Below are positions 13,047-48,096 of a stretch of 64,000 nucleotides of DNA, piece after piece. The notes beneath the pieces are model-generated. The model was not told where the DNA came from. It ran no database searches and was given only the letters and a program-made list of their open reading frames with translations. The stretch's first letter is position 1. Every line of letters starts with the position of its first letter. Origin of the DNA: Amphiscolops sp. MND2022. Its lineage: Eukaryota. The DNA lies in contig OZ076409.1 in NCBI GenBank assembly GCA_964187785.1, positions 52,144,001-52,208,000 on the forward strand, in the 5' to 3' direction. The translations under genes were made by a program, and so were the position numbers.

Positions 13047-13263
13047 GGTTACCAGTCACTTGGCTTAATACCATTCGGCCTAATTCTTTCGTCGAGTCAT
13101 TTGGCTTAAAAAATTAAAGCCAAGTGACCACAAAATTAAGCCAACTCCATTCCAACTGAAGGAATAAATATGTCAACTCCCGGAAATATCATAATGTGGG
13201 GCACAGGGTTGTCAGTTCAATTACGTTTTTTCTGAAAATAATTGATCAATTACAAATTTGCTA

Positions 13264-13978
13264 TGTAACGTCAAGCAAGTAACGCACATACCAGAACTGG
13301 GACAGTACTTAGGTTGCCTAGACAGGAGACCATAGTCCTATAACAAGCCTAAATACTAGTTTTTCATCCCTAAAGGTCTCCTAGGGACTTTTCCAAAACA
13401 CCGTGGAGATTCCTCTTATTAGAGCTCCGTGGCGACGCGCCGGCACACTCAAAGTCCGGACACGTCCCATAAGCGTGTAAAAACGTTCCTAAAGGCTTCC
13501 TGCGGCTCTACATACTTCCGAAGTCCGAAAACAGGGCTCTAGCTGAAATGCATTCTATTTCAGAAAATAAGGTCTAAATACTCCATCACAAGGATCTGGC
13601 AGATCCAACATCATCAAAAATCTGTAAATCAATACTAATGACATTAGAATCAATCAAGATTGGCATTTCTGGCATGTTTCTATCAAATTCGCGATTCTCT
13701 TCATCTCCTTTGCTGTGGGATATCTGAATCTCAGAACGTTTTTGCATTAAAAACGCACTTTTCTGGGGAGATGACACAAATCCGGCATTTTTCTTGTTCT
13801 TCCACATCGTGTCAGTGTCTTTTTTTCCTTTTTGGGTCGGGGTTGGGTTCGTCTGTCTTCTTTTTTGCTTCCTTTTTGGTTTCAACGACCTGCCAGGTCG
13901 GCCATTTTGACTCGCACACTTTTTGGTTCTTGATCGAATTTTTCATCGAAAATTTGGTGCTGACTGGTGGACGTTACA
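13264..13978 (-). repeat. Gypsy 3' LTR
   Basis: TG..CA ends with 9-bp terminal inverted repeat; about 10-11 differences from the 5' LTR by eye. Confidence 0.97.
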
Positions 13979-13986
13979 TCCTCCCC
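13979..13986 (-). promoter_or_regulatory. Polypurine tract
   Basis: GGGGAGGA on the minus strand directly abutting the 3' LTR. Confidence 0.8.
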
Positions 13987-14442
13987 GGGCCACTGTTTGT
14001 CGTCCTCGGCAAACGGAGAAGGATGCATCATTACTTACAAATGGTTTTAGCAACGTGGTTTTCAGTTTTTCTATTAGATCTTACTGCTTCAAAATTTCGA
14101 TTTAGCACTTTTTGATCATTCTGGGACAATAAAATTCAGTTTGTTTAAAAACTCTTACCATTCGTTCCAAGCTAGTTTAAAAGTTCTTTTAAGGGTGGTT
14201 GCACTTTTGCGACACTTAGCCAGAGAAACGGAGAACTTTTTACTAAAACTTTAATTGCACTTGTTTTGGCAGTTAGGTAGGCACCAAGCTGGGACCTACC
14301 CACCGGGTAGTTACATTAGCAAAATAACCAAAATGATGTTAATACTTTGTTAACTAAAATAGCACTTTTTGTTTTGACAACTACTGAGGCATAATATGTT
14401 CTTGGTTAGTTTTGGTTTGATTAGCCAAGTTCAGTACGTGTT

Positions 14443-17400
14443 TCATTCATCGCCAGTGTCATCCATAGTAGTATCGTCATTTTGTAGCACTTCATTTAAT
14501 GATAAGGCCAATACTTCCGATGGTGGCAGGTCTTGCTGATTCAAGCTAGGTAGTTCGTTCAACTCTAATTCGATATCAGCTGCTAGTGTTCTCGTCAATG
14601 ACGTGGGCGTGACTTCCAAAGCTTCTAGCGGCACTGTCTGATCATTTGAAGTAGCATTGGTGGTGATGACAGTGGTTGGGTTAGCTGTTTCAGGGTCATG
14701 GATGGATACATTGGTGTTGGTTGGTGTTGTAGCTGTTGCAATGCTGATTTGGCTTGAGGTTGACATCATGGAAGTTAAGGTATTTTCAGCAGTAGAAGCC
14801 TCCTCGTGCCCTGCTGCCTGTCTCATTGAGGTCGAGCCCGCTGGGCTTAGTTCTGGCAGCTGGTCTGCGAGGTCTTTGAAAGTTCCAATTGCATTTAAAT
14901 AACTGTCATATACGGTGTTTCCTTCGTCCCTCTGCTTGGCTATCAGACTCATGAAGATTTCCATGGCCATTTGTGGATTGTTCGGCATCTCTTCATTCAG
15001 GGGCAAGGTCTTTCTATTGGGTTCTTTTGCAATTTTCGGAACTGTCGCTTTCAGAGTTTGAAATCCTTGGTAGATCATTCTGTCCACTATCGGCGGGTCT
15101 GCCCAATGCGTAGTGTCGGACAAGATTTTGGCTGTATCGGCTTGCGGAGTCACTCGAGGGTTATACATTCGGGATACATCTTGTATTACTCGATGCTGGA
15201 GTCTTTCTGGTGTGGAGCCTTTTCTTCGTCCACCCAGGCGTCGTTCCGCTTTGGTTAGTACTCGGAGAATACCGGGCTCATCCCAGCTGGCAAAGCCTTG
15301 CAATGCTCCAGTGGTGGGTTCTAAAGGAGCGTGCAACCATTCTACTGGATGAAGTTCTAGCGACATAGGAACAGCGCACCGCGCTCTGGCTCGGATTAGG
15401 GCACTGAAGTTGTACTCGACCTGTTTCTTGTCTTTGATAATCGTGTATGCCATTGGTGGTCGGAAGTTGGCAAAGTTGCGCACTAGCATTTGAAAATCCG
15501 GTTGTCTGGTGTCGTCTTCAGGGTCCACAAAATGTAGAATGGATAATGTAGGTGCTTTTGCGGCAACTCTAAGCGGCTGTGTGGGGTATCTCAGGGCCAT
15601 CATTGAACCAAATATAGGCCAGACTATGGGTCCGATCATGGGGACTAGATCTTCAGTTTCTACTAACAAGAGGCTGGCTACTTGCGAGGGGAATAGGAAA
15701 CCTGGCAGGTTATTGCTGTTGGGTTTTTGATTTAGCGAGTCGTCTAAAGTGCTCATTACACCAGAGACATTGACCCAGGCTGAGTAAACCCAAGCCAATA
15801 GTGTTTCGATATTCTCGGCGAGCTGGGCGCGCAACTTCAAAGCGCCTGCAGGGTCCAAAGTGTTTAGAATGGCGTTAATCCAATTCCGCTGGTTCTTGGC
15901 GAATATGAGAAAACTGAGTAGACAGGAGTTGGCTTTAGCTAGGACTAATCTCTGCACCAAGTGCACTGGGCCTTTGTAGACGGCGCCTAGACCAACGGCC
16001 ATCAAGTATGCCAGGATTTCAGCGATTGTGGCCCTCTGCATTGCTTCTACGTACAGTCTAACTTGCTGCTCATCTAAGCTGCTTTCACGCTGTACCCAAA
16101 ATGGCGAGATGTTATACAAAAATATAGGGAAGGGATTTCCATGGCTTTCTGCTGTTTCATTCAAAGTCACCTGCAGCGTCTCGTGCCAAGATTGGTAAGT
16201 ATGCTGTGGGTTCATTCGGTTTTCTTGCGCTGTCTTTTGAGCTAATACTGTCAGCAATACTAGGGTGGGGGAAACCATGTTGGGCTTTGCGTCGATCGCT
16301 TGTATCGCCACTGGAAAAACAGTCGCGTCGGTCCGAGTTTGTTTTATTCCTTCTGTCTTCTTGAAGAGAGCTAGCAGCTCTTTGTGGAATTTAGCGTTGT
16401 GTGTTCTCTCATCTAGCGTTGACTCGTCTCTCCTTTCAAACCATCCGTTGTCAATCATGTTTGCCCGTTCCTTTTCTTTAGGTTCCTTAACTCGGCGTAC
16501 CCCATTTTCATCAAAGGTGCGATGCGCCATTTGCATGCCAAAGTCAAAGGCAGTAGCATCATCAGCCAGTAATTGAGAGTTTCCCTCGTATCCGGTACAA
16601 GCCTGCAAGGCTTTCGAGATTTCCGCCAGGAGTGCAGAATAAGAGTTTTCGCCCGGACGCCAGGTTGTGGCACTCACTCTCAGGTTCGGTGCTATTATGT
16701 AAAATGACAAATTCTGTGAGTAAGATGCTTCTGATACTAGATATAACAGTTGCTGGAGTGGTTTAGGTAAGTATACGTATCCTGGGGGCGACATAAAGAC
16801 TACCCCTACGACGGGATTCATTCGCTGCACCCGCCTGATCACATTTCTCATTGCTTCGACGTACGCAATTACCTCTCCTGTCATCACTTCTTCCGTCAGT
16901 CTACGGTTGCCTCCTTCAAAGTATTTCAGCGTTCCTCGAAGAGCCAAGTGGTCGATCATGTTGCTATATATTAGGATCGGAGGGAATGGAATTGTTTCTG
17001 TGTGGTTGACGGTGGGACCGAAGACCTTGCAGGTCACCTCTGCCATTTCCTCTAGCGATGTGCAGGGCAAGTTTATAACGCGAACATCCATCAGGGTGTT
17101 GTTCCTGTTCGCCGTTGCTTTCATCGTGGAGTCCATGAACAAGGCAATTCTTGTCTTTTGCAACATCTCTTTGCCCATGGGGAGTAAGGTTGTTATGTCC
17201 CTCATGAAATCACGGCTTTTCATCAGTTGGTCATCGTATCTTGCTGGTCGTTGTATGGCTAATTTTACTTTGGAGGGGAGTGATCTCATTAATGATGAGT
17301 TGTCTTTATGAAGATTCTCCTTTACTCTCTCGAACCAGGGAGGAATGCGGTCCAGAAGGAGTGTTGGCTTCTTTACGGGCCTTAAGTAATGCACTCCGAT

Positions 17401-17922
17401 CGTTGCTTTTTCTAGGTTTTGCACATCTTCTGGGCTTCCTTTGCTGGTAGCTGTTTCGAATTTCTGCACATCCAATCCTAAGTCTCGATTCTCTGATTTC
17501 GCTTCTCGCTGCAGACGCACCGCGTCTCTGGCAGCAATGTCAAGCTGTCGTGCCTCTGTCTGCGATAGGAGCTCTTTAGAGAATCGCACTCGCCTAGGCT
17601 CCGGCTGTTGCACTGGGGATGGATTCGGGCTAGAGTTCGTTGCATCCGAATTAGCTAAGTCTCTGGCCCTTTTCTTTTGAACTAGCTGTTCGATCTTACT
17701 TTGTTCCTTTCGATTCAGTACGTCGCGGAGATCGATAGGTGCCTTGGCTGCTTGTCTTTCTGCTAGTTCTTGCTGTTTCTGTTGTTCTTGGCGTTCTGGG
17801 TCGGCCTGAAAACCTATTAGGTGATGTGGGTCCTGCAACGTTGAGGGTAGCAAGGCATCGTAAGAGTCTTGAAATCCGATCATGTCTGTCATGATGGGCA
17901 CGTCGAGCGGGTTCCGCATCAT
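14443..17922 (-). CDS. Gypsy ORF3 main frame (1159 aa) with SGNH/GDSL-hydrolase-like domain; probably continuous with 17994-18758
   Basis: Intact long ORF between pol and the PPT. RIALFMDS / VINLPCTSLEEM / ILIYSNMIDHL / NPVVGVVFMSPPG resemble SGNH blocks. The frame stays open upstream into the G-run at ~18000. Confidence 0.8.
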   Translation of the reverse strand: MMRNPLDVPIMTDMIGFQDSYDALLPSTLQDPHHLIGFQADPERQEQQKQQELAERQAAKAPIDLRDVLNRKEQSKIEQLVQKKRARDLANSDATNSSPNPSPVQQPEPRRVRFSKELLSQTEARQLDIAARDAVRLQREAKSENRDLGLDVQKFETATSKGSPEDVQNLEKATIGVHYLRPVKKPTLLLDRIPPWFERVKENLHKDNSSLMRSLPSKVKLAIQRPARYDDQLMKSRDFMRDITTLLPMGKEMLQKTRIALFMDSTMKATANRNNTLMDVRVINLPCTSLEEMAEVTCKVFGPTVNHTETIPFPPILIYSNMIDHLALRGTLKYFEGGNRRLTEEVMTGEVIAYVEAMRNVIRRVQRMNPVVGVVFMSPPGYVYLPKPLQQLLYLVSEASYSQNLSFYIIAPNLRVSATTWRPGENSYSALLAEISKALQACTGYEGNSQLLADDATAFDFGMQMAHRTFDENGVRRVKEPKEKERANMIDNGWFERRDESTLDERTHNAKFHKELLALFKKTEGIKQTRTDATVFPVAIQAIDAKPNMVSPTLVLLTVLAQKTAQENRMNPQHTYQSWHETLQVTLNETAESHGNPFPIFLYNISPFWVQRESSLDEQQVRLYVEAMQRATIAEILAYLMAVGLGAVYKGPVHLVQRLVLAKANSCLLSFLIFAKNQRNWINAILNTLDPAGALKLRAQLAENIETLLAWVYSAWVNVSGVMSTLDDSLNQKPNSNNLPGFLFPSQVASLLLVETEDLVPMIGPIVWPIFGSMMALRYPTQPLRVAAKAPTLSILHFVDPEDDTRQPDFQMLVRNFANFRPPMAYTIIKDKKQVEYNFSALIRARARCAVPMSLELHPVEWLHAPLEPTTGALQGFASWDEPGILRVLTKAERRLGGRRKGSTPERLQHRVIQDVSRMYNPRVTPQADTAKILSDTTHWADPPIVDRMIYQGFQTLKATVPKIAKEPNRKTLPLNEEMPNNPQMAMEIFMSLIAKQRDEGNTVYDSYLNAIGTFKDLADQLPELSPAGSTSMRQAAGHEEASTAENTLTSMMSTSSQISIATATTPTNTNVSIHDPETANPTTVITTNATSNDQTVPLEALEVTPTSLTRTLAADIELELNELPSLNQQDLPPSEVLALSLNEVLQNDDTTMDDTGDE

Positions 17923-17993
17923 TATGGTTCTCGGTCTTTGGCTTGTATTTTGGGTGGCATCTTCATCGTTCTGCGCGCTCGTGTGCGCTTCTT

Positions 17994-18758
17994 CTACCCC
18001 CCTTCCCCCCTGAAAGAAGAAGGGAGCATGAGTTTGTTGTTCTCTTCCAGGCGCCTGACACTAATTGGGGCGGATGATGGTGGGAGCGTCAATATTGGCG
18101 GAGGCACTGTTGGCAAAAGGCATGTGAATTGTTGTGTGGGCGATGGTTGCGTAGATTGACAGTCGCGGGCGATCTCAGGGGCAGTTATCGACGATATTGC
18201 AGGTGCTTGCGTCAGGTTCGTTTGAAGACGTCGTTGCTGTTCCATGGGAGGTCTATTAGGCTCGCCATATCTCAGGTGCGATCTGTGGTCATCAAAATGG
18301 TGGGTGAGATCGTGTCCTTGCCACGCGCCATTGTGGAATTCCGCAGTTCTGCGGTAAGATCCAATTTTAATTGATATGGAGAGGGTGAAGTCCGGATGTA
18401 TCTCGAGAGATTGCATTTGAGCAATTAGTATGGCCATCCCGGTCACCAGTGATGGAGAAGGGGTTTCTTGTAGGGTCGATTGGACCAGACCAAGCTGGTC
18501 AATTCTGGTTTGAGATTCTTCGACAGGCAGCGAGGACATGGGAGCTTCTTGCGTGGCAATTGTCGGCGGTTGTGATTGGTCCATTCTGCTGGTGCTCAGT
18601 TGCGAGCTTGTTGTTGATGGAGCTGGCATGCGGGTTTTAGCCGATTGATCCAATAAAGAGATAGGTAGCGCCTTGGATGAATGACTATGGTGGATGTACT
18701 GCAGATGTGATGATATATAACTGGCTGCGTCAAGTGCATGGGAATTGACAGGACTGAA
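17994..18758 (-). CDS. N-terminal part of ORF3 (Ser/Thr/Pro/Gln-rich), separated from the main frame by a -1 shift in a G-run
   Basis: Frame open from the AG acceptor (18760-18759) to TAG at 17994; first in-frame ATG at 18629; shift at GGGGGGAAGGGGGG. Confidence 0.6.
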   Translation of the reverse strand, partial: FSPVNSHALDAASYISSHLQYIHHSHSSKALPISLLDQSAKTRMPAPSTTSSQLSTSRMDQSQPPTIATQEAPMSSLPVEESQTRIDQLGLVQSTLQETPSPSLVTGMAILIAQMQSLEIHPDFTLSISIKIGSYRRTAEFHNGAWQGHDLTHHFDDHRSHLRYGEPNRPPMEQQRRLQTNLTQAPAISSITAPEIARDCQSTQPSPTQQFTCLLPTVPPPILTLPPSSAPISVRRLEENNKLMLPSSFRGEGG

Positions 18759-18959
18759 CTAGAAAAAAGAAAACGACAGACGTCATTTTGAGCTAAAATA
18801 TTATTGCTGATGAGTGTAATTGATATGATAAACATTAAAAGACAATAAGATAAAACAGATTCGACAATTCACGTTAAAACCTAGTTCAGGGATTACTCAA
18901 ACAGCACATATGCTAAGAACAGGACGAGTGGCCTCCCTTATTTTTTGTACCACAGTAAT

Positions 18960-20010
18960 TCAGTCAAATTTGTATTTTACATGGTTCTGATGTGTCCTCA
19001 CTAACGCAATTGATACATACACCCTATCGTGGAGGACTATGTCGATATTGGAATCAATGAAATGATCTTTCAACATTGAATACCAAGCTGGTAGCATGTT
19101 GATTGATCTTTCAGGGTCATAGATGGGAAAGTGGATATGGGTGATTTGTGCTCGTGTGAGCTTCTGCACCAGGTCTATTAGGCACAGATGTAGCACATCA
19201 TGTAAAATGGGGTGTTTACTAGAGGCTCTGGTGATTAATAGGAACATCTCGTTATTCCACGGCGTTGCGGGTGATGTAGTGAGGTGATAGCCTTTCCTAC
19301 GGCTGGGCGTAGTCTGAAAATTTCCTCCTGACCATATTCCCTAATGACGTAGCGCGCCATTGCTGAATATGATAGAAGGTCTGCCGGACAGCATATTACT
19401 ACGGCACCCTTGGCTTGCAAGATGTCAGTTTCTTCGTAATGAATCCATGATAGATAGTTCGGTTTGATCTTCGGATGCGTTATCAATAGCTTTCCCGTGA
19501 TTGTGCTTTGATTGTCTTGACTTGGCGTGAGATGATCCAAAATGGCCTTACGGTCTTGCCACACTGTTCTGCGTAAAGGTCTGTCTCCCAAGTTGGTGCA
19601 AGACCAATCGTGAACTACGGAGAGTGCTTCCAGCATGGTCACTGGGTTCTCGAATGTATACGTGTGTTTGTCTAACAGGCGTATTTTGGCTTGGCGACAG
19701 AAGACGATAGCTAGTAGTTGTAACCAATGTTGACTGAGGAATCTCCCACGATAAATATCTGCTAGATGGAAGCATAAGGTGTCCTCGAACTCTACGAGCG
19801 TACGCAAATTTTCCAAGCAAATCAGTAAAGTTTCTGGAGTCACTAGTGCGTTTCGTCCAAAGAGGTGACCAATAGCCACCAACCAGCCGTTGGGTGATAC
19901 ACGTCTCCAGGAGGGGAGGTTAGGCCATATTGCTGCCATAGTCTTCGCGCGGTGATACAGCGGACCATTGCTATTCGTGTGTCACTTGGTTCTATTTTTT
20001 CAAACATCAT
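18960..20010 (-). pseudogene. Pol C-terminal tandem macrodomains (TARG1/Poa1p-like), broken by two single-base frameshifts (~19845, ~19285)
   Basis: Domain 2: IHYEETDILQAKGAVVICCPAD...MARYVIREYG...RPAVGKAI / MFLLITR...LHLCLIDL...ITHIHFP...MLKDHFIDSNIDIVLH. Domain 1: AMVRCITA...PGDVY...WWLLVT / TPETLLICLENLR...LCFH...WLQLLAIVF...IRLL. Confidence 0.7.
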
Positions 20011-23000
20011 CGATGGTGGGAGTGGGGGTATGATTGCGGTCAACGTGAATTCTAATCCACTCTTTTCATGCCGCGTCCATTCCTTAAAACGGTAGGTGGG
20101 GCCATCTAATGGAGATGTTTCTTGCATGGCTTTTAGTGTGGTTTCCAGGGGTGGGACCACGGCTGGTCCAATGCTCGAATAGGTCTTTTCCACGGTAATC
20201 ACAACGTGATGTACTTGTGGAACCTCTTGGTCCTTAGCTTGTATGTTTCGAATGTATTGCATGTGATCTTCCGTTGTTTCAGTAACAACTGTGTCTGGGG
20301 CAGGAGCGTCTACTCCCCGGGCCAATCGCTTGTTCGGTGGTTTCACACTAATTAGGTTGACGCAACTACAGTTACGGGAACCACATGTTCCGCAGCGATA
20401 TCTAGGAGTTCTATTGCGTCGCAGCAAATAGGGTGGTGCTCGTGAGGTTGTTGTTTGTTCCGCTTCTGATTGCTCTGATGATAAACTTTCTGCAATGTTG
20501 GGTAGCGTCATTGCACGTTCCACGGTTTGAGATTGTGCTCTAGTTCGCAATCTGCCTCTCGATCTGGTGTACGGTCGGTGCGTGCTTGCAAGTGCTCTGC
20601 TTGATGAGTTGGCACTTCCTCTTCTACGATTTGGAGGTCTGCCTCTTGGCCTGCCTCTTCTACTCGCGGTTCTCCCCGATGATGGCGATGCTTCCATGCT
20701 GTGTCTGGGTTCTGGAATTTCTCTGTCAGTTCTTTCTTGGGGTTCGGGTCCCTCCTCGATAGTTTGTAGTCCTGCCGAGCTACCAGCTCGGGAATTGAAT
20801 AGTGGGAAATTGCTCAATGTGTCGGTTAAAGCTGGGTTCGAGAGCAATGGTGCTGATGTTCCTGATAGCGAGGGTATCAGACTTGGTGTTGGTTCTGGCC
20901 TGACTTCCTCTTGGTCTGAATACAGTGGTTCCAAATCATCGATATAAGGGTAGATCATTGGTTGTTGTGGCTCTTCAATGGGTTGATCCATTTGTTCTTG
21001 GTCGGATTCCGACTCAGAAGGGTATCCAAAATGACTGAATCGTCTTCGAGGGATTCCTCGTTCTAGAGCAGACTGAGTACGTGTTTGAATCGTGCTCGGG
21101 GGAACGGGCGCGGTCGGTTCCATCTCGAATGATGCCTCTGGCAGTTGTTCTGGAAGAAATGAGTCACGCGATATGTCTGACGTTATCTCCTCATTACTTT
21201 CCTCCACGTATGGGTCTGCGATGATGGCAACATTCTGGTCTAACACAAAGGGTTGATGTGCCGCCCAATCCCACGGCGCAGGCACATGCTTCTTCAGGCG
21301 TTCGAAGTGGACCTTTTGTCCTGTATCCAAAACGTATAATCTTCCATCTTGTAATACATCTGTGACCTTGTGAGGTCCACGCCAGGCACGAAGGAGTTTG
21401 CGGGTGCCACCTTTAGGAATTATGTGGCAGAAAACCCAAACAGCATCACCCACCGCGTGAGCTTTTGCTTTCAAATGCTTGTCGAACTTCTGTTTTTGTC
21501 GTATTTGCGCCTGGTGTGTGTTTCGGCGATCAAGTTCGTGGATTTCTTGTTGTCGAGCAAGTAGGTGCTCCACAAATTCTTCTTTGGACTCAAACTCTCG
21601 CGCTGCAAATTCTGGGTATATAAACGAGAGTGGAATGGATTTTTCTGCGCCATGTTGGAGCATATAGGGGGAAAATCCGGTCGTTGCATGCCTGGTAGAA
21701 TTATAGGCACCCAAGACTCCGTCTATGTGTTCATCCCAGTCAAGCACTCTTCGAGACGTATAGACTCGGAGCAAGGTCAGTAATGTTCGGTTTTGACGTT
21801 CCACTAAACCATTACCTCTCGGATGAGCTGGAGTAGACGTTATTTTGGTTACTTGCGAAGCTTTCATCAGTTCTTGAGCAATCTCAGCAGTAAAGTTGGT
21901 GGCATTGTCCGATTGCATCCTGGCAGGTGTGCCGTGTCTTGCAAACCATTTGTTCAGGATAATCTTTGCAGTCGTCTGGGCGTCATATTCGTCGTGTGCA
22001 CATGGGATTGCCTCTGCAAATTTAGTGAAATGGTCGATGATGGCTAGCAATCCATTATTCCCTGACGTTGTTTTGCATAACTTCAAATGGTCGAACTGCA
22101 CCAGGTCATTGAAATTGCTGCTGTTGATACTTTGTAACGGATAACAGGGGTTCCCAGCGGGATGTTTCGTCTGTTGGCATGTTAGGCAGTGCTTAATATG
22201 ATTGACAACATCACGCTTGATGTCTGGCCAAGTGTGGCGCTCTTGGATTCTTGTCAACACTTTACCAACGCCTTGGTGTCCTGATTCGTCATGCGCTCTG
22301 TACAGGATTTCGTGTTGGTATAGCTGGGGCATGACGATCATACACGGTCGTATGTGCATCGCGCGTTGCCGCGGGATGTAGTTGACACACAAGATATCGT
22401 TTTGATTCAGGAACAGTAAGTCTTTTTTCTGGTGAAAGTACCGTTTGGCAAAGTCTTGCACGTCTTCGGGAAACAACGTATCCTCAAGTGGCCCGTTCTT
22501 CATGAGTTTCTTCAGCGCTAGCAGATGTACATCTCTGTTTTGAGCTAGATGAAGATCTTTCAATCCGCGCATTGTTGACTGATGCTCGTGAAGCTCAGTC
22601 CCGACTAGCCGGAGGACGTCAGCTTGTTCCTGACACGGCGTAGGCAATCTACGCAGTGCTGGGTCACGTTGGATGGTGTCCAGACGTGCCGCCGGCACTT
22701 TGGTCATTACGCTAAGGATACAATTCGGTCTGTCGTCTTCGGTTGAAGTCGGAGTTGTTTCCCATTGCACCTGTGGGTACCATGGTATGGAATTCAGGGA
22801 CGGGTCTGATGTCAGATCTTCCTTTGGTGGCTTCTTCAAAATGTACAGTACTGGAAGTTGTGCTTTAGCTTCCAGTGGAAGCTCTGGATGGTTTGGGATA
22901 AATTTTCCATGTTTGTCGATATAGGGCACAGTGGGGAGTTCTTCGTAGTCTTTCTGGGGCATGAAGCTGAATCCCTTACTCACTTCTGGTAGAGTTTCCA

Positions 23001-26000
23001 CAATCTTCTCCCGATGTACGTAGTCATTGGTCCTTTTGCTAAGACCATCCACATTTCTATGTTGTGTGCGCGGTCTGTGGATCGTCTTGAAATGATATTG
23101 GTCGAGGCGCGCAATCCAGCGTCCAATCATGGCTTGATCCATTGAATATGTCTTCAGCCATGAGAGAGCCTGGTTATCCACGCGCAGCGTGAATTCTCTA
23201 CCTGCAAGGTAGGAATGAAATTTCTCGATAAAATAGAATACTGCATACATTTCCAGCTTCGGGGCGCCATATTTCATTTGTGTTTTAGTCAGTGACTTAC
23301 TGCCATAAACAATAGGACGAAGAATGGTTTTCCCATTGTATTGTTGTTCTTGGTGCAGTATGCCGGCTATAGCAACTGCACTGGCATCTGTGTCTAGAAC
23401 GAAACGTCCTTCTTCGTTGGGCGCTGCCAAAGCTGTGGCATCGACCAATGCCTGCTTTACTGCATCAAACGCTTCTTGGTGTCTTTCTTTCCAGTAGAAG
23501 TGTTGGTTCTTTTTTAACAACTCCTGCATAGGTTGCACCTTAGCAGCATGAAAAGGAATGAAATCTCGGTAGTAGTTCGCAAAACCAAGGAAGCTCTGTA
23601 ATTCTTCTCTGTTTCTGGGGGGCATCCATTCCTGGATTTTGCTGACAGCAGCCGGGTCAGTCTTTATGACTTCGGCCGAAACTACTCTTCCAAGGTATTT
23701 GGTTTCAGTGCGCATGAAGTCGCATTTCTCTGCTCGCATCTTGAAACCTGCCTCTCTGAGACACTCGAACACTTCTCTAATTCTTTCCAAGTGGTCTTCG
23801 ATGGTTTCTGTCGCAATCACTATGTCATCTATGTATGCCATGACCACGCTTCCATGTCGTTGTTGGATCTTCTGTAGAGCTCTCGTGATTGATCGCTGAA
23901 AGGTGGCCGATGCATTGCATAGCCCGAAGGGCATGCGCCGCTATTCGAACAGGCCAAGTTCACACGCGAACGCCGTTTTTCTGCGATCACGCTTCTTCAG
24001 TGGAATTTGCCAAAAAGCCCACGCCAAATCTATGCTCGTGAAGATCTTTGCATTCCCAATCCTCGAGAGGCTTTCATCGATTCTGGGTAGTGGAAATGCG
24101 TCCTTCACTGTTACATCATTTAGCGGGCGGAAGTCACAGCAAAAGCGAAGCTCGCCTGATTTCTTTTTCACCATGACTATGCCACTGGCCCACGGAGAGA
24201 AGGAGGGTTGTATCAGACCAAGGGCCAGCAAATTTTGCACTTCCTGATTGGCTTTCGCCGCCTTATCAGGGGACATTCGCCTAGCTCCTTCTCGGTGAGG
24301 TATAGCCTCCGGCTCTAGCTCTATCTTGTGCTTTGCAATCTTACACCTACCTATGTCAGACTTATTTTTCATGAATAGGTCTTCGTACTCATTTAATATA
24401 GTTTCTAACTTGTTTCTCGCCTCTTCCCCCCATGAAGAAAGGACGGAAGAGAGGTCGGGGCCTGGGATTGCTTTTAACAGCTGTGGATCTGTCCTTTTGC
24501 GCTTTTCATTATCTGATAAACCTGCCTCAGACGGTTCGGTCGACGATAAAAAGTTTTGGGCAAAGGAACTGAATTCTGAACTGGTGTCCATATCAAAGTT
24601 TCTATGTATTTGATTTACATACTCGGCAGAAAGCGTCGAAGCTTCACCTTCAGTTTGCATAAGAACAGAGTTCAATACAAAAGTGGTAAGCGCCGCTTTG
24701 CCAATTACAGTTTGTGCTTTGATTTTCACCCGTTCTTTATCAGTTTGGTTTCGGATGGCTAAAAATACTATACCTCCTTCTCCCACAGAAGTTAGTGTAT
24801 CTTCTGAAACAAAGACTGAAGTGGACTTTATGCTACATGAGTGGACCGTTACGTTTCGAAACAGAAAAGTGTCAGGTTGTTGCGTGATGATTTTCGCACG
24901 CACTATCTTCCTTTCGAATGGACCTAGTATTATGTCTTCAGTGGAAACTACAAACGATGGTTCGTGGTCGCTTACCTCATGAGTGGCTTTAAAGATTCGA
25001 GGTGTTTTGGGATCGCGGATCGTCACTTTCATTGCTGTTAGGTCCACCAACACGTTGTATGTGCGCAAGAAATTGCGACCCAGGAGGAAATCCTCTGACC
25101 CAATATGATCGGCTATAACTACAAAGTTGGTCTTCAGAGTGTATCCGCCGAGCTGAAAGTTTACATCTTCGGCTATACCCACGGTGGTGATGTTTTTACC
25201 ATTGGCAGCGAAGAGTTCAACGTCATATGGTGATAGGCTCAGCTTATGCTGGGAGGCAATATTTTTATACGCACTCAATGAAAGGATGGAAACTCCCGAA
25301 CCGGTGTCAATCATGCCGAAAAGTGGTATCGGCTTTTGCAGAGGAGTTCCGAATGCTACTACTAGCGAGGCTCGCTCATCAATCTGGGCCTCCCCTTGTG
25401 CATCTTGCACTCCAATGCTATAACAACGCAGTTCTTGCCTGCCCAGATATAGGCCTTGCGGAAAGTGTCCTTCCAGGACAACAATCGCATCAAACCTCAT
25501 GTCCACACCATCAACCGTGATCGCAACGGGAACTGGCGCGATTGTCTTCACCCTCTGTATCTGGGCCAGCTTGGTCTCATCATTCCTTGTGAAGTGGGGT
25601 AGTGGTCGCGAAGCTATCGTCAAACTGGTATTGCGGCACAGTTCTTCTTTCAGTTGTGGTAATGTGAGACTTGGACGCGCCTTTTGTTCTGCGGATAACA
25701 ACAGATGGATGGATATTAGTGTTTCAGTACAGTCAGGCGCTGGTGCCTCAAGTGTCGTCAAGATTTGTTTCTCGCCACAAGTTACAACCACAGGGCGTGA
25801 CGGGCCTCCGTCTCCCGAAGTCGAGATTACCCTTATTTGATCCTCTGAATCGCAAAAGTCTGTTGAGTTTGCGACCGGGGCGTACCACGCCGCTTTTACT
25901 TGTTCTTCCGTTGCAACATTGTGAGGCGTCTTACAATCAGATGCCACGTGGCCTACATGACCACAATTAACACAGAATGCTGATGTTCCTTGTTCTGGTA

Positions 26001-26040
26001 GGGTTGCGGGCATTAAGTCATCATTCATGCCGCGTGGGTT
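19843..26040 (-). pseudogene. pol: Gypsy pol (second zinc knuckle, PR, dUTPase-like, RT, RNase H, integrase); in-frame TAG at 23941-23943 where Trp is expected
   Basis: CVNCGHVGHVASDC; IDTGSG; SPWASGIVMV.KK..LRFCCDFRPLN; FE*RRMPFGL; YIDD; LDTDAS; HDESGH..CLTC; FDHL..SDNA..VERQNRTL; WRGPHKV. Confidence 0.96.
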
Positions 26041-28578
26041 CTACGGGCACACCCATTCTCCAGCTGTGTTCGTGCGACACGAATTAACTATTTGCTGTAC
26101 TGGTTTCCATGCTCGGTCTTTCAAAGGACAATCGGCTGCAAAGTGTGAAGGATCTCCACAATTGAAACATGTTCGCTGCGGTTGTTGTCGGAAAGCTGGA
26201 GGCTGTTGTGGGAATTGCTGGGCGTTAGGCGCTTGAGGGGCTTGTGCCTGTGCTTGGTTTTGCGGGTTCGCTGCGACAGGCGGCTGTTGTTGTTGTTGTG
26301 GTGCAGGATAATTTTCCGAACGTGTCGAACCACGCATACGCAGGTATTGTTGTACCGTGAATCGTAAGGCCTCCACAGTTGGGGGTGTGTCCACATACTG
26401 TTCCTGTGCATACATGAGTGCAAGGTTTCGTTTCAACTCATAGCTTCGTACCCCTTCGATGAACTTCTGCATAATTTCATAGCGCCTCACCGCAACTTCC
26501 TCGTTGGGAAAACCTTGGCTGCGCAAACCTTCCAATGCGTCAAGATATTGCATGTAGTCTTCATCCGGGGACTGATTACGTGTACGGAACTGTTGTTGTA
26601 TTTGGATCTTAATAGATCCTGTTCCAAATCTTCGTGCTAGCAGCGCGAAGACTTTTTCATCAGTATCGCGTTCCGCTTCTGATTTATTCGTAATATAGTC
26701 TCGTGCTTCATTTTCTAGAAATTCCACAATTGTCCATGCTTTGTCTAAAGGAGTGTCTTTTGCATGGGCTTTTTCTAGGTAACGCCTCATCAGCATTAGC
26801 CAGCCATCCACTATTCCATCGCGTGTGCCACGATACTTGGTAGGCTTGTTCTTGGATTCTTTGGCTGCCAATAATGGCTCCAGAGCTTTGGACATCGCGG
26901 TGGTTATTGCTTCCGCCAACGCTTGGCTGTGTATAGCATTCGGAGCGTTGTCCTTGTCCTTGGCAGCTCCCTCCACCGTTCCAGTGTTCAGGTTCCTTCT
27001 CGAGATTGTCTTCCTTTGCGTGCTAGAGGCCAATGACCGTAATTGATCGTTATTATGGGGTAACATTGAGCGCTTTGTGCCAAGCATTGACGAAACAGCA
27101 GTTTGATATTCGGTACTTCCTGATGCTGTTTTCATATTACTATGCATTTGGTCGCTGGCCGCCGAGTAATAATCTCCAGTCGTTGAGGCACCTCTAGCAT
27201 ATGGGTCGAATGAAGGGGGGCCTGATATGTCACAGCGCTCTACTTCAGTTTGAGTGGTTGTTGACAGTTGGGTTTTCATCGGCACCTGCTTGTACGCTGC
27301 GGGTGGTTGCAACTTTGGCTGTTTTGTCTGATCCGGTTTCGTCACACATTGGCGTTTGGCAACTTCTCGGTAGGAGGGGTGTTGACTAGGAGACGCACTC
27401 GTAGATGGTATGTCGGCAGAGTTTGGTGCCATCGGCACGGGTGTGGGACGGTTTGGTATCGCCGCCACTACGGTCTTCACCCCTAGGGTTAAATCTTGAA
27501 CCGTAGTCATGAGGTCCACCATGCGTTTGTCGACATCTAAATCTCTGTGGTGCATCATTTCGGACATGTGTTTTAGGCGCTCATCCGCTTGTCGATCTCT
27601 TTGCACCATTATTGCCGTCATCTCCGATATACGTTTTTCCGTTAGGTCCTTGACTGATGCTACGGACGTTTCTATCTTGCCCTGGTTGACTCGTCCTTCC
27701 ATCTTGATCTCACTCACCTCCTTTCGTAACTCTTCTACTTCCATTACCAAAATTTCTGTCCGACGGACATGGTCAGTGTTTTCCTGGGCTAACTTTACTT
27801 GGACTCGTTTCAATTGTTCCATACTACGTCCAAAATCTTCTCGTATGGCTTCTGTTTCTTTGATACCTCTGGCGATCGTCGAATTTGGGGATGCTGCACT
27901 GCCGGCATCGGAGTGTTGGAGCGTTGCCGTGCGTTCCAGTCGTAAGGTGCTGGGACCCAGCAATGGTGGTGTAGTGGAGGCATAGTTCTGGAGAGCCACT
28001 CCTTTTCTGGTCTTCCGCTTTCCCGGCTGACTTTCCGAAGGAGCAATCGCAGTGTCACCTAATGTATTGCTATTGCTATCAAACACTGGTACTCCGGAAC
28101 CCAGCGGGTCCGCTTTCGTGCCCAGGTGAGGGGTGATTTCTCCCAAAGTCATGCCCACATTCATATTTTCAACCCACTTACTGATATCCGAGCTAGTAGC
28201 TACCTCTCTATTCGAGTTCGGCCAGTCCCCGGTAATAATCACGGAAGTGTTCAGAGGAGGCCATACGTTGGTATGGTTCATGGTAGTCTCATTAGCTAGT
28301 TCGGTGCTATCAAAGGACATCTTGGAGGAATTTGCTTGTCTCGTACGCGCAATTTGCGAATTTTGCTCAATGTTAGACACGTTATCTGACATTACGTCGT
28401 CTAAAAACAGGTCGGCGATCATATCTAGCGGTGCTATTTCAGCTTGTGTACTCAGGGTATGCAACTCTTCTATGTTGTTCGCGAACGGGTTGGTAGCATG
28501 AAATTCGTTAGACTCCACTGATGTCTCACTCATGAATAATAAATATTCCCACTGACTCAAACTCATTTTTACTTGCAC
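26041..28578 (-). CDS. gag: Gypsy Gag with long N-terminal/coiled-coil extension and CCHC knuckle (first ATG 28566)
   Basis: KPTKYRG..VDGWL, QFRTRNQSPDEDYMQYLDALEGL, KFIEGVR, CFNCGDPSHFAADC; ends in a TAG in frame with pol. Confidence 0.93.
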   Translation of the reverse strand: MQVKMSLSQWEYLLFMSETSVESNEFHATNPFANNIEELHTLSTQAEIAPLDMIADLFLDDVMSDNVSNIEQNSQIARTRQANSSKMSFDSTELANETTMNHTNVWPPLNTSVIITGDWPNSNREVATSSDISKWVENMNVGMTLGEITPHLGTKADPLGSGVPVFDSNSNTLGDTAIAPSESQPGKRKTRKGVALQNYASTTPPLLGPSTLRLERTATLQHSDAGSAASPNSTIARGIKETEAIREDFGRSMEQLKRVQVKLAQENTDHVRRTEILVMEVEELRKEVSEIKMEGRVNQGKIETSVASVKDLTEKRISEMTAIMVQRDRQADERLKHMSEMMHHRDLDVDKRMVDLMTTVQDLTLGVKTVVAAIPNRPTPVPMAPNSADIPSTSASPSQHPSYREVAKRQCVTKPDQTKQPKLQPPAAYKQVPMKTQLSTTTQTEVERCDISGPPSFDPYARGASTTGDYYSAASDQMHSNMKTASGSTEYQTAVSSMLGTKRSMLPHNNDQLRSLASSTQRKTISRRNLNTGTVEGAAKDKDNAPNAIHSQALAEAITTAMSKALEPLLAAKESKNKPTKYRGTRDGIVDGWLMLMRRYLEKAHAKDTPLDKAWTIVEFLENEARDYITNKSEAERDTDEKVFALLARRFGTGSIKIQIQQQFRTRNQSPDEDYMQYLDALEGLRSQGFPNEEVAVRRYEIMQKFIEGVRSYELKRNLALMYAQEQYVDTPPTVEALRFTVQQYLRMRGSTRSENYPAPQQQQQPPVAANPQNQAQAQAPQAPNAQQFPQQPPAFRQQPQRTCFNCGDPSHFAADCPLKDRAWKPVQQIVNSCRTNTAGEWVCP

Positions 28579-31345
28579 AGTTTTTGCATCTCAATTAAAT
28601 TAGATTTTCTTTCGTCTTTCACTCACTCCTTCCCTTCAACAAATTGAATTAAAGGCAACTCAAAAATGGAAGTTTTGATCTCTTTCTCCGATATTCTAAC
28701 TAAATTGTCGTGCTATTAAGTTCTAGAGTTTGTAGCTCGTGATCGCCCTCTTGATTCTATTTCGAGATCAGCTGACTGTCATAAACTTCACACTCCTAAT
28801 TACATGCACTAACTCAAGATTACATGCACTGGTGTTAGTCACCACTAATCAAAACAGAAAGGTTTATATCCCCACTAACTGTAGATAATTATTCTACACA
28901 AATTCAAAGTTAAGCTTTTTAAGTTTTTTTTACAGTTACTCACACTAAACTATGCTTTATCCAGCCACAGGCTATGTGGTCGGGATAACTAAAAGGTTTT
29001 GGCGCGCTATCAGAACTTTGCAGAGATTTATTCAAGAAATCACCGCGCTTTTCTTCTGGGAGCGCACACTATGTCACTCATACTGACTTTCAATAGTAGA
29101 GCACCTGGGGTATTGCTACAACAAGGGATGTCGGGAACTAGACCTTGGGGGTGAGTAGGTGTTAGGATACTTCCAAACAAGAGAGTTATCGTAATCTGAT
29201 CGTAACATGATCAATGGAAACGCAGTTCTTTACAATTTCGAATGCTACTATACTCAATTTTCTGTCTCGAGACGCACCGCGTCCACTATCCACGTCTTCT
29301 AGAGAACTCTTATTTGCGTTTTAGCTCTCTCGCGTCACTTCTCAGTCGAGGCAAGCGTGAAAGCACCTGTCAGTTCGCACTTAGGTGACCCTGGTGGCCG
29401 TTGGGAGAGGAAATACAATTTTTGCGTTTTGCACTCCTATGTCTCGTAGACAGCTTTTTGACAAACCCAAGATTTTAGGGTTGAGCTAGCTCCATTCTGA
29501 TTACTTCAATGGGACGAGCTATGGATGCCTGGTGTAGAATTAGGGTCGTTTAAACCTTCGCTCTCAACTACACCTACGAAAAGTGTACAATTTTTCGCAA
29601 AATTTCTCAAAATCGGCAATTCTTTCGCCAAAGTGCACGCCTGGAGAAGGTGAAGATCACTTCTAGAGCTACTAGCGACCTGAACATTTGACACAGTATA
29701 TTACTGTGACCAAATCGTGAGAAAATTACCGCCGATTGCGCCAAAATTGATTATACGTGATTTGAGGTTGCTTCAGAATGTTGTTTGAAGAATCGACTAT
29801 GTTGTGAAATTTACAAAAGTCTGTCAAACTCGCCTTCTAGGCTTTCTAGCAACCTGAAATTTTGTATGCGAGCGTGAATTATACCCACGTAACAGAAAAA
29901 CAAAATAGCGAGGTGCCCAAGTCAATATTCCGCAATCCGAGTTGACAAAACTATGATGTACCCTATTAGTCACTTCCTTGGGCCAAAATTCACAAAAATG
30001 TCAATTTCTCCAAATTGGACAGTAGCAAGCTGCTCAAAATGCACAAATTGTCGGGATCTAGTGCTGTTTGTACGAAAATGCAAGAATTTTAGTGCTGGGA
30101 TACTACGAAGGTATTGCACTGTGCTCAACTAAAATTCGATTTTTTTGACAGTTTCGTACAATTTTTGAGCAAAACTGCGGCTAAGATTTCTCAATCACCA
30201 GTAGTGCAGTAGTGGTAGCGCTACGAAAATTACACCACTAACGTAACTTTTTACGGTCTACACGATGGTGCAATCCGTTTTGAGCTACTCCTAGTAGGAG
30301 AGATTTCGACCTATCTTGGGGACACTACTCCAGTGTTCCGAAAATGTCGCAAAAACAACGCGTTTTCGGCTATTTCTCAGCAACTACTGGTTGGAATCAC
30401 TCGCGGTTTTCTGCGTTTGCAACGTTATACCCTATACTAACGGAAAATAGGCAAGCGAAACCTGGCAGGTTCCAAATAAGGTCTCTCAAAATAACTTTCA
30501 AGTTGCACCTTTGACACTCTGGGAACAATGTGAAAAATACGTATTTTCCCTAGGAACTTTTTATTTCTCGGTTCCCAGATGTTCGGGATAGTTCTAAACT
30601 TAAAGTTTTCTCTATAAAAACCGCTAATTTTCTCAATGTTTCAACAATTTAGCCCAGCAAATTTTTCTGTTCCTGACCTAGCAGGTCTGATGAAACGTTT
30701 TTTTCGTATTCCCACTGGCCGTATCCTTTTCCACTAGATTTCAACTTTCAACACCTCAAAAATCGGTATTTGAGCTATATATGGTGTTATTTTCGAGGTT
30801 TTCGCGCTCAAACTTTTAATCAACTGGTCTAAACACCCACAGGGTATTTTCCCCAGTTAATTTTAGTGGGAACAGGCCTGGGAATATGCTTTTTGGGCCG
30901 ATTATTAGCAAGAATTAGCAATATAACCCGATTGATGTGGGTATACGGCAACTACAGGGGTGCTGGAGGTGTGATGTCGTAGGTGCTCACACACTGTCGT
31001 CAGCTGATTGGGGCCTTCAGCACTCGTCCTCCCGGTCCCCATACATTGCTAATTTACTGAAACGGAGCTACAAAACCCTTTATAACTAGTTCCGGATAGG
31101 CCGGATTAACATTTTCAACAGGTATTATCAAAATACAAGGGGTGCACTGTCTGAAATCGTCGATTTTGGGTTTCAGACCTCGGAAATACGCAGGGCACGC
31201 AGGAAAAACACTAGTACAAGGCCCACAGGGCTAGAATAAGGCATTAAAAACAATCTACGACTCTCCAAGAAGTTTTCCTAGATCCAGACCTAGCAGGGCC
31301 GGAAAGCAGGAAAAACTCCAATTATGGCGAAAAGATGGAAAAAAC

Positions 31346-31363
31346 GTCCCTTGTGGGGCGCCA
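31346..31363 (-). promoter_or_regulatory. Primer binding site, tRNA-Lys-like
   Basis: TGGCGCCCCACAAGGGAC versus canonical Lys(UUU) PBS TGGCGCCCGAACAGGGAC; 16 nt from the LTR edge. Confidence 0.7.
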
Positions 31364-31379
31364 TAAAAACTACTCTAGA

Positions 31380-32095
31380 TGTAACGTCAAGCAAGTAACG
31401 CACATACCAGAACTGGGACAGTACTTACGTTGCCTAGACAGGAGACCATAGTCCTATAACAAGCCTAAATACTAGTTTTTCATCCCTAAAGGTCTCCTAG
31501 GGACTTTTCCAAAACACCGTGGAGATTCCTCTTATTAGAGCTCCGTGGCGACGCGCCGGCACACTCAAAGTCCGGACACGTCCCATAAGCGTGTAAAAAC
31601 GTTCCTAAAGGCTTCCTGCGGCTCTACATACTTCCGAGGTCCGAAAACAGGGCTCTAGCTGAAATGCATTCTATTTCAGAAAATAACGTCTAAACACTCC
31701 ATCACAAGGATCTGGCAGATCCAACATCATCAAAAATCTGTAAATCAAAACTAATGACATTACAATCAATCAAGATTGGCATTTCTGGCATGTTTCTATC
31801 AAATTCGCGATTCTCTTCATCTCCTTTGCTGTGGGATATCTGAATCTCAGAACGTTTTTGCATTAAAAACGCACTTTTCTGGGGAGATGACAACAATCCG
31901 AGCATTTTTCTTGTTCTTCCACATCGTGTCAGTGTCTTTTCTTCCTTTTTGGGTCGGGGTTGGGTTCGTCTGTCTTCTTTTCTGCTTCCTTTTTGGTTTC
32001 AACGACCTGCCAGGTCGGCCATTTTGACTCGCACACTTTTTGGTTCTTGATCGAATTTTTCATCGAAAATTTGGTGCTGACTGGTGGACGTTACA
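31380..32095 (-). repeat. Gypsy 5' LTR
   Basis: Direct repeat of 13264-13978. Confidence 0.97.
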
Positions 32096-32384
32096 CTAAT
32101 TGGAATTGGAATGGATTTTTTTCAGGGAATTGGAATTGGAATTGAAACGTTTAATTTCAATTGGAATTGAAATGTTTTGAGTAATTGGAATTGAAATTCA
32201 TAAAAATAATTACCGAGAAAGCCTTTTAAGGACAATAAAACAACATCAAGTAATAAGGTTGAATTAATTGCCAATAACCGTAACCGTCAACATGAACAAA
32301 AAAGTATCAATAATGCTTGAATTAAAGTCATTCATCAAAAATGCATAGTTTTTGTTTAGGAAAACATTTCTTTGGTGATGATGG

Positions 32385-35300
32385 TGTAACGGCTGCTTGA
32401 TCCCTTCAATTGACCAAACTTTACGCCGCCCTGAATTCGGTGCTCGGCACTGCGGATCGTTACCGAACACTGCTTGCTTCTTAGATTAAAAGGACTGTAT
32501 CTTGACTTAGTAGGATCCAATGATCCCGAATCGCACTTCTTCCTTGTCTCTTAACGCGTCCAACTCTCCACAAGTTGAGAGTAACTAACTTAGTCGCCCT
32601 AAGTCTTTGGCGAAAAGTCGAAAAGAGGTGAAGAAATGAATTGAGAATTGAAATGGTCCTAAGACCCAACTTGAATACAGCGTTCCAATCATTTTGTGCC
32701 TATCTAACAATGGTATACATATCGTTTACAATTATTCGATAAATATGAGTCAAAATATGAAGTATAAATAAATGACATTTAAAGCATAAAATGAAGTTAT
32801 TGGCTAAGTAAACAAACTATAGTGTGGGTATAGCATGTTGGTTAGGTGGGCTCTAAAGCTTGTTTACACAATGTAAATATCAGTAATTTCAACAGAGATG
32901 AATTTCCTTCAAGGTCATATGAGAGAATCACATAATAATTGATACATCAAAAATTGGGTAATTCATGGGGTCCGACCTAGGTCACTTTGGGTGTTAATTG
33001 CTCGGAACCCAGGGGAGATACGGGGTAGGTTGTTAAGAGTGAAAAGTTAGGGAAGCACCACCACTATATGTGTTTCAAGGTGATTGAATGAGTGGTTTAC
33101 CGGGACGGGGGGGTGGCCCTTTTTTACATAGGGTCATTTTTACTTAGACTTGTATTTTTCCATCTAAAATCTTGATAAATTTTCTAAGTCTTTTGAGTTG
33201 TAAGTTTCATCAGTCACGTTCGAATTTGAGTTTCTGATCTCGCAATTGACTGGCGCCAACATTGCCGGCCCTGTTTTTCTCCCGAAAAACACTTTCATAG
33301 AACATGGGTGCCAGTCTCACTACTGGTGGTCTGAGATTGTCATCAGTCATCGTTGTCTTTCTAAGATCTTCAGCTTCATAGTCATGTTTGCCAGTTGTTT
33401 GCTGTGTTCTTTCTCTACTGCAATGCTTCTCCAGCCCATAATCCATTTCCCTGACCATACAGTTGTTGTCGACAAGTTGACATAAAACAAAATATTTCCA
33501 AAAAACTGTTGTCTCATTTGAAGTGATAGTTTTCCCAATTTTCCCAATCTTCATCATCAACGTCCGACATTCATTGAGTTCAATTGATTGCCTTTCTTTT
33601 GAAGCGTCGAAAGGTATGATACAAAATTGCTTCAGGTCGTTTAACCCGACTTCCAGAATAATTTCAACATCCAAAGAGTAGATTTCCATATAAGTCGAAA
33701 ATGTCTTCAGACAGTTTCCCAAGATTTGCTCTGCTACATATTTCCTCATCAAAGTTGACTGACCGCGGGGGAGATATGTCAAAGAGAGTTCGTTCTCTAA
33801 TCGTTCCATACTCAAGCTTTCAATTTGGCGTTTGGAAGAGATTATTGAATCATCCATCATCATCACCAATAGATAAAGAGAATTTCCAACATTACGGCGA
33901 CTGGAGTTTTTTCCTTTGTGTTCATTGCTCTCTTTGCATTCAATAGGAGGGGATTTGTGTTCTGAACTCAGTCGCTGTGCTGCATTTTGCTCTTTACTTA
34001 CAGACACGTCGTTTTTCGTAGCTACATCCGAGTTTTCTCCAAATAACTGCAATGCCGTGGAGTTTTGCTTCCGCTTCTGTTTGTAGAGATTCACTGTGCT
34101 TCTCTCACCACAAAACTTCAATTCCTTTTCATCTAGGTTTCTAACTGGCTCCGATAGATCAGCAGAAACTTCCAATTTACAACAAGACCCATGCCGAGTC
34201 CACATTGTCTTGAAAAGTGCAGCCGGCCCATTGCAAGACCCGTCGCTCCAACTTTCTGTGGTTGGTACTTTCAAAGAACACATTTCCATTCTTGACACTG
34301 ATGAGTTGTCTCTGAACTCACGTAGCCAAAGTGTGTCATCTTGTGGTGTTCCATTCATGTTCAACTGAGCTCCTTCCTCCATTTCCTGTATCAGGTTCCA
34401 GTTATGTTCAATCTTCCAAATTCTTTTCTTCAGTTGCTTGCGGTAGCCTTTGCTCAATTGTGTTTTGTCAATGTCGTTAGCCTGTGACACTGCGTCCATC
34501 CCTGAGTTTCCATTACCAATCCAATGGTTCCATACATTTCTATGACTCAGGTTAGTTTCTTCTAAAAGACTTTCATTGAAGTCGAAATCCGTTTTCTTTC
34601 CAAAGGTTGCATTCACGACTTGTGTTTCCGTTTTAGCATTGCTTTTCGCGGGTTTTTCATGTTTCATTGCAACGTGGCATAGCTTTTGATACATGACGAT
34701 TTCATTCAAGTCTTCTGGCAGTGTATATCGTTGCTCATTCACAAAGTCATAACTTTTGACAAATTCATAACATTTGTTTCCTTCTTCAAGGAGTAGAGTA
34801 ATGTCATAGGACACTGTCACTTGGAATAGTTTCCCCTGTCGCACGTCCTGTAGTACGGTCGAAACTTCTGCCATCTCTTGCAGCAGTTCCAATTGCACAC
34901 TCATTTCTTCCGAAGTTTCATTGTTTGATGCGAAGGCTAAGCTTCGATGTTCTTTCATAGTTTCAGTCATTGTGTAATCCAAGGTCTCTTCTGTTTGCAC
35001 TATCAAGTGCTCACTCATGACCAAGTGAATCTCTTCTTCCAAAACTTGTTCTGTATCCACGAGGAGGATTTCTGATCGGAAGTCTTGCCAGCCATTGTCT
35101 ACAAAGAACGTTTCTGGCCAGTTCCACATCCATTCTGTGATTAGATTTTTCGAAGTTCCTTTGTTTGCATTGCTTTCAATATTTGTCATATTTGAGTCTT
35201 CATGTGCTTCACGTTTGATAGTTTTGTCTTGCAACTTTCCATGGTTTGGACACTTGTCTGAACACTTCATCTGCTCAGGTTTCCATTTTTTCACTGTACA

Positions 35301-47290: not shown

Positions 47291-48096
47291 AACCAATCAA
47301 ACTACTCCATTTATTTTACTCAGTGTATATTCAATAAATTGGCCGGATACGGCCGTTTGACGCTGCTATGTATTTAATGAACAGGACTATAGGCTAATGA
47401 CTGGTTTGGGCCATTCTCTTAATTCATTGCCTAAAATAAGTCTGAGATGGAAAGATGTATGTGCTGATAATCATGTGCTACGCCCATCCAAACACCTTGC
47501 AAATAGTTGCTAACCGCAAATGAGTGTTTTCAATTGAATGGTGATAATTTTTGACCACCAGTCTAATCACCTACTCTGGCCACAATCATTGTGGCATTCT
47601 TTGGCCAAATAACCGCATTTAGCTAAAATACCATAACTTCTCGAGCATGAAATTTTTATAGTGGGGCTTTGAACTGCATACTCAGGCACGTGCCTACTAG
47701 TGCCTTACATTCTTTGAAGTGCTTTCAAGTGCTAACACCGATGATTAAACAAGCGTAAATCTTTGCTTTCCAATAACTTAAATTTTTCCGCCCACTTTGA
47801 AGCGCCTATTTGTTATCAATAAAATTCATTTCACGTATTACTAGGAAATTCCTCAGCTTGATGTGATGTTGCTATAAGTGACCACCATTTACTTCCAATA
47901 TGTAACGAATGTGAAGTATTGCCGAAAAAGTATTGTTGCTACATGCTTCGTGTTTGTTATTTTGCCTGTCCCGCCATATATGTAAAATATGTGTTTGCCA
48001 TTCCTACGGGGGTATATAAATACCTATGGCCCCAGTAGAAGACACAGTTTTTCTGCTTTACTTGATACAATTCAGGTGATTTTGTAGTTCTGTACT

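Follow-up and report, generated by a model that had tools for sequence, protein, structure and literature searches.

A Ty3/gypsy LTR retrotransposon in the genome of Amphiscolops sp. MND2022 carries, fused in frame behind its integrase, two tandem units that are predicted from structure models to adopt a minimal macro fold closest to TARG1, DarG and Poa1p. Both units have lost the equivalents of the TARG1 residues K84 and D125 together with the loop glycines, and both are under purifying selection.

The element and its reading frame

The full-length element (18.8 kb) occupies positions 13264..32095 of the window, i.e. the whole stretch of 64,000 nucleotides analyzed here, and lies on the minus strand, as do all of its parts given below. 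It has TGT...ACA termini and a TAG/TAG 3-bp target duplication. The 5' LTR (31380..32095) and the 3' LTR (13264..13978), 716 and 715 bp long with TG...CA ends, are 98.5% identical, and a purine-rich tract adjoins the 3' LTR upstream. A TGGCGCC motif (window 31379-31355), which we take to be a primer binding site, starts 16 nt downstream of the 5' LTR rather than adjoining it, with identical spacing in two sisters. Pfam identified zf-CCHC, protease, RT, RNase H, H2C2 and rve on the element, and the pol order PR-RT-RH-IN, found in the window copy and in two full-length sister frames, is that of Ty3/gypsy elements, as are the LTRs with TG...CA ends and the target duplication of the window copy.

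The window copy is defective, with two in-frame stops and three frameshifts. In-frame stops end both the gag piece with its zf-CCHC (26041..28590) and the piece with the protease and the N-terminal part of RT (23941..26040), while 19843..23940 encodes the C-terminal part of RT, RNase H, the integrase (H2C2, rve), a GPY/F-like motif, a linker and the first half of macro unit 1. The motif behind the integrase (21384-21364), presumably a GPY/F, is separated from the start of unit 1 near 20016 by an S/R-rich linker of about 450 aa, within which a Cys4 motif (20403-20362) was noted that is also present in relatives at 40% identity and is a possible zinc site. A conserved strand and helix, confidently folded in the model, directly precede unit 1 (20017..20211). 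Unit 1 itself, with a reduced TARG1-like fold, spans 19670..20016, and unit 2, with the full fold, 19017..19447; between them lies a segment with two predicted helices (19448..19669; dN/dS 0.04-0.08). The gag-pol terminal stop at 18960..18962 is common to most sisters. Downstream, a second ORF (ORF2; 14443..18758) occupies two frames in the window copy and one frame of 1450 aa in a sister, and neither this copy nor the sister's (L055:2-4219) had any Pfam or PDB match. By eye, one segment resembles what we take to be an SGNH/GDSL pattern; ORF2 is absent from the young subfamily copy with a frame of 2999 aa. For LTR elements of rotifers, ORFs of the GDSL type have been reported (PMC5408684).

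The original prediction had stitched three frames across two single-base shifts, and all three are present on the minus strand over the macro region, as stop-to-stop frames at 19843-23940, 19235-19981 and 18960-19340. By searching the 1.07 Gb host genome at the DNA level, where 40 of 752 candidate loci were scored (94-100% identity), we found that, relative to 19/19 fetched sister loci (95-98% identical), the window copy lacks one base near 19848, in unit 1, and another near 19287, in unit 2. In 14 of these 19 sisters, a single frame runs uninterrupted through both sites and ends at the same terminal stop, i.e. the sister copies do not all stop at 19843, and the two indels suspected earlier are confirmed. 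Both one-base shifts are thus private to the window copy, through either mutation or assembly error, and an artefactual origin of the in-frame fusion was rejected because of the 14 open sisters.

A protein search with unit 2, in which 150 of 3478 candidates were scored, returned loci that were all at least 83% identical, about 34 of them (counted by eye) with frames of at least 2900 aa. Many sisters have one frame of about 3000-3200 aa ending in both units, and the two long frames that were checked, of 2999 and 3111 aa, run from gag through integrase to the tail. Natural sister copies were used for the protein work throughout. Some loci contain two copies of the tail region at a distance of about 2.3 kb (C2:94.117/94.120 Mb, L049/L050; C11:34.376/34.378 Mb, L044). 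Other repeats in the window, among 32385-38514, 43357-54570 and 54568-59860, include a 5.68-kb tandem duplication and another element family, present in both orientations, with an ORF of 1192 aa at 33210-36788.

Fold and pocket of the two units

No Pfam family matched unit 1 or unit 2 in the window ORF, the sister protein or the aligned members, and neither the sister protein nor any of the 93 aligned members reached the cut-off of Macro (PF01661); the Pfam search that had been suggested as a check thus failed to recognize either unit. Crystall_4, a weak Pfam match (E 0.03-0.2), was rejected as the identity of the tail. A single-sequence PDB search with the tail gave no matches, and a profile (A3) whose rows carried long flanks gave 0 matches to the PDB. 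Relatives were gathered as 58 proteins and 252 cluster representatives, and with a profile of unit 2 the TARG1/C6orf130 chains were the top five of seven PDB matches, over their full length, at E 0.006-0.01.

The structure models agree with this. AlphaFold modeled the two units of a natural sister with a pLDDT of 83.3 and a pTM of 0.52, all structure matches of this model running through unit 2. Unit 2 matched TARG1 with a Foldseek E of 8e-9, a TM of 0.83 and an rmsd of 2.3, and with a VIA Z of 16.6 (rmsd 4.0, 142 residues aligned), DarG being next (Z 15.2). Unit 1, folded alone, reached a pLDDT of 88.5, and TARG1 chains were all eight of its Foldseek matches at E <= 0.001 (TARG1 E 1.7e-4). 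Its Z to TARG1 was 10.9 (rmsd 3.1), tied with 2AFC and DarG. Human TARG1 (OARD1/C6orf130; PDB 4J5S, 2LGR; ALC1-like class) is consequently the top structural match of both units, and the top profile match of unit 2, as the claim of two tandem TARG1-like units had foreseen; the claim needs amending for unit 1, which is TARG1-like in a reduced form only, with loop-1/helix-1 shortened and 116 of 152 residues aligned. The Trp counted in the original motif pattern lies three residues past the conserved TARG1-type position. The minimal macro fold is shared with DarG (5M3I), Poa1p (6LFQ) and the BT1257-type 2AFC, which gave Z scores of 15.2, 11.8 and 12.7 with unit 2 and of 10.1, 9.2 and 10.4 with unit 1. 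Unlike TARG1, to which they are 12-17% identical, the units are tandem and fused to a retrotransposon polyprotein. When trimmed profiles of the two were compared (hhalign), they matched each other with a probability of 93.4 and an E of 2.4e-7. In the ESM Atlas, unit 2 matched unnamed clusters (0.90-0.91) and a Macro cluster (0.89), which serves as a lead only, and unit 1 had no match; neither unit matched anything in a phage collection.

The catalytic dyad of TARG1 consists of Lys84 and Asp125 (PMC9411070, available text), position 125 being written as Glu125 in PMC7050489 while the PDB chain has Asp. Residues were counted over 93 aligned rows, the loop positions of TARG1 being derived from D125 in the PDB chain, where it is part of GCGLD. 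In unit 2, the K84 equivalent is Arg in 49/57 rows and Lys in 2/57, and the D125 equivalent is Ser (20) or Pro (16) in most of 46 rows, Asp not being among the common residues. G43 is replaced by Ala (49/62), G121 by Asp (41/47), G123 by Glu (34/46) and L124 by Arg (41/46), i.e. the loop G-C-G-L-D has become D-P-E-R-S. In unit 1, the K84 equivalent is Ala (25) or Ser (22) of 53, the G123 equivalent Tyr (46/60) and the D125 equivalent Gly (56/59), and the loop reads D-x-Y-R-G. Neither unit retains the Lys84/Asp125 dyad or the glycine-rich ADP-ribose loops (G43, G121-C-G123) of TARG1. The catalytic-site motifs had been described as altered, and this is now made precise: the dyad and the G-C-G-L loop have given way to a conserved D-x-x-R, common to both units (D in 52/60 and R in 54/60 rows of unit 1; D in 41/47 and R in 41/46 rows of unit 2).

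Because both units have D-x-x-R, the alignment suggests that the remodeling of the pocket preceded the duplication. In an unrooted tree of 18 rows, a 100/100 branch separates both units from the intact domains described below, although the branches are long and unit 2 was not recovered as one group. The original prediction had also proposed non-catalytic readers of ADP-ribose. Loss of the catalytic motifs is in line with the first half of this, but the reading of ADP-ribose is disfavored, since the diphosphate-loop glycines are replaced, with Glu or Tyr at the G123 equivalent, and G123E abolishes ADP-ribose binding by TARG1. In the available text of PMC5928194, TARG1 G43E and G123E lose both ADP-ribose binding and catalysis but retain RNA binding. 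Loss of motifs is in itself no proof of inactivity, since SCO6735, a member of the same fold group and a weak match of an intact-domain gypsy family, is an ALC1-class hydrolase that is active although it lacks the Lys/Asp dyad (PMC9411070, available text). According to the same text DarG retains its catalytic Lys80, whereas the units have neither the Lys nor a toxin partner.

Selection and related domains

Purifying selection on both units was evident from codon comparisons between natural subfamily copies. In the three unsaturated pairs of five, dN/dS was 0.12, 0.05 and 0.11 for unit 1 and 0.07, 0.09 and 0.10 for unit 2, compared with 0.02-0.04 for RT and integrase and 0.13-0.15 for the S/R-rich linker; the low value of the linker makes the signal only modestly specific to the units. 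The remaining two pairs are saturated at synonymous sites and were compared by identity only, the units being 41-47% identical and RT and integrase 66-80% (RT 80%). The pair is kept, and ORF2 lost, in a young copy whose two LTRs are identical (100%). The module is retained across saturated subfamilies and in relatives at 30-35% identity. Among the latter, the database proteins P0118, which carries both units, and P0199 show no more than 34-36% identity to any locus scored in the host genome, and the two-unit module is therefore probably present in other genomes as well. Searching other taxa for full-length relatives had little power: one search returned the tandem-pair family only, and of the 155 candidates in another, three were non-gypsy proteins.

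Searching the host genome with Pfam Macro gave 59 matches, most of them in long frames. Four other Ty3/gypsy families (L077, L078, L079 and L080) each carry one near-canonical TARG1-type domain, located after the integrase in L077 and L078, between RNase H and integrase in L079, and between protease and RT in L080. The domain is thus of the same class as the pair and likewise within pol, but single and with its motifs kept. L[IV]TK and GCG[LRV]D are maintained at the family level, with IRK in the L079 copy itself, and the L077 domain, with its Lys and GCGLD, matches TARG1 at E 1e-27. L077 and L078 are 70% identical to each other over RT-RH, and all four families are 24-34% identical to the tandem-pair family over the same region. 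A search with one intact domain, in which 150 of 1556 candidates were scored, gave E <= 2e-21 throughout. By comparison of sequences, the occurrence of intact domains in several families would reflect either separate captures or swaps between elements.

Further macrodomains came up in these searches. L057, L058 and L059 are macrodomain exons in short frames that look host-like and, by eye, resemble MacroD and macroH2A. The long metagenome proteins P0212 and P0214 have intact TARG1-type domains; P0214 also matches Pfam PF01660, which we take to be a viral methyltransferase, and is probably an RNA-virus replicase.

What the pair may do

The explanation that we favor, and consider reasonably probable, is that the pair is a selected, non-enzymatic pseudo-macrodomain module that binds RNA, DNA or a host protein and thereby aids replication or integration of the element; here the function is inferred and the fold is predicted. 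An ancestral element would have captured an active TARG1-like eraser, such as other gypsy families in the genome still appear to have. The pocket of this eraser would then have been remodeled to D-x-x-R and the remodeled domain duplicated, and the binding surface of the present pair would lie outside the ADP-ribose pocket, which TARG1 likewise does not need for binding RNA. The net charges of the units (+1 and -2) are not basic, which does not favor binding of nucleic acids. That the pair is instead a neutral leftover of a captured gene is highly improbable: the catalytic residues are lost and the window copy is broken, but a dN/dS of about 0.1 largely refutes neutrality, and the retention across subfamilies and distant relatives also stands against it.

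Unit 2 might still read or erase ADP-ribose with a rewired site, so that cDNA ends or proteins of the element would be protected against ADP-ribosylation by the host, and the conserved Arg at the K84 position together with the Asp and Arg of the loop could make up that site; both proposals seem unlikely. They would fit the full fold of unit 2, its pocket-lining positions, which are conserved rather than drifting, and the intact sites in other gypsy families, and there is precedent both in the dyad-less SCO6735 and in TARG1, whose substrates include ADP-ribosylated nucleic-acid ends (PMC7050489). Neither glycine-rich phosphate loop is preserved, however; the G123 position holds a Glu, which kills binding in TARG1, and in unit 1 part of the pocket is missing. 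A decoy or inhibitor, mimicking host TARG1 and blocking a putative host ADP-ribosyltransferase or defense protein without catalysis, is quite unlikely. Dead mutants of DarG, TARG1 and SCO6735 have been tested on DarT, with SCO6735 showing inhibition by interaction (PMC9411070, available text), and the units diverge faster between subfamilies than RT and integrase do; within subfamilies, on the other hand, dN/dS is far below 1.

The original prediction had further placed the pair in the position of a chromodomain and proposed that it targets integration. In chromoviruses, a chromodomain follows the integrase. The pair does lie C-terminal to the integrase in the same frame, and the likeness to chromoviruses (named in the available text of PMC6338049) goes this far, but the position is only loosely that of a chromodomain, given the long linker after GPY/F; the chromodomain is also of another fold, and no chromodomain family was matched when the window ORF and two full-length frames were scanned with Pfam. 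Among 18 insertion sites of young copies on many contigs, no shared target sequence was found; the flanks are AT-rich (GC 0.31-0.41 in 17 sites), with only three cross-site repeat matches. A 3-bp target duplication was called by script in 13/18 of these copies, or 15/18 when two with mis-picked LTR starts are counted (L103-L136), against 14/306 in a cross-site control, and duplications of 4 or 5 bp in 0/18. The window copy (13261-13263 and 32096-32098) and the C9 copy have the 3-bp duplication too. LTR elements usually duplicate 4-6 bp, and the shorter duplication hints at unusual behavior of the integrase, which would suit a tether that, like a chromodomain, directs integration into certain chromatin. 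Such a tether is nevertheless very unlikely, considering the distance from GPY/F, the 18 sites without a common flank, and the three different places in pol at which other families carry their intact domains, because of which the domain's position is not fixed to the integrase.

Captured macro domains have been described in other LTR retroelements, namely as ORFs in teleost epsilon-like endogenous retroviruses (Basta et al. 2009, as cited in the available text of PMC4977317). Those are additional ORFs in Retroviridae, whereas the gypsy pair is tandem, in frame, degenerate and situated in pol. Reviews on accessory domains and giant elements (PMC6431247, PMC13524379 and the available text of PMC6338049) do not mention a macrodomain. 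No description of a TARG1-type domain in gypsy pol was found in the literature searched, subscription papers and Repbase notes lying outside its scope. Poa1p-like macro domains are probably annotated in database entries of arthropod gypsy polyproteins, which would make the intact versions less novel.

Since the pair is invisible to Pfam, pol tails of this kind are probably under-annotated. The pair is a natural pseudo-macrodomain with the same substitution that has been used to kill binding in TARG1, and together with the four intact-looking families it makes up a natural active-versus-dead series, with activity predicted from motifs. Viral macrodomains mark conflict with host ADP-ribosylation, and the finding of four intact-looking families and a selected dead pair in one genome suggests that this conflict may extend to LTR retrotransposons. 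SIRT6 ADP-ribosylation takes part in L1 silencing (PMC4695847, available text). Tentatively, and with more doubt than confidence, ADP-ribosylation may act in this lineage as a host defense against LTR retrotransposons, which the erasers located at three pol positions in several distant gypsy families would counter, while the tandem pseudo-enzyme at the integrase tail of the very abundant family, converted from such an eraser, would tether or decoy host factors.
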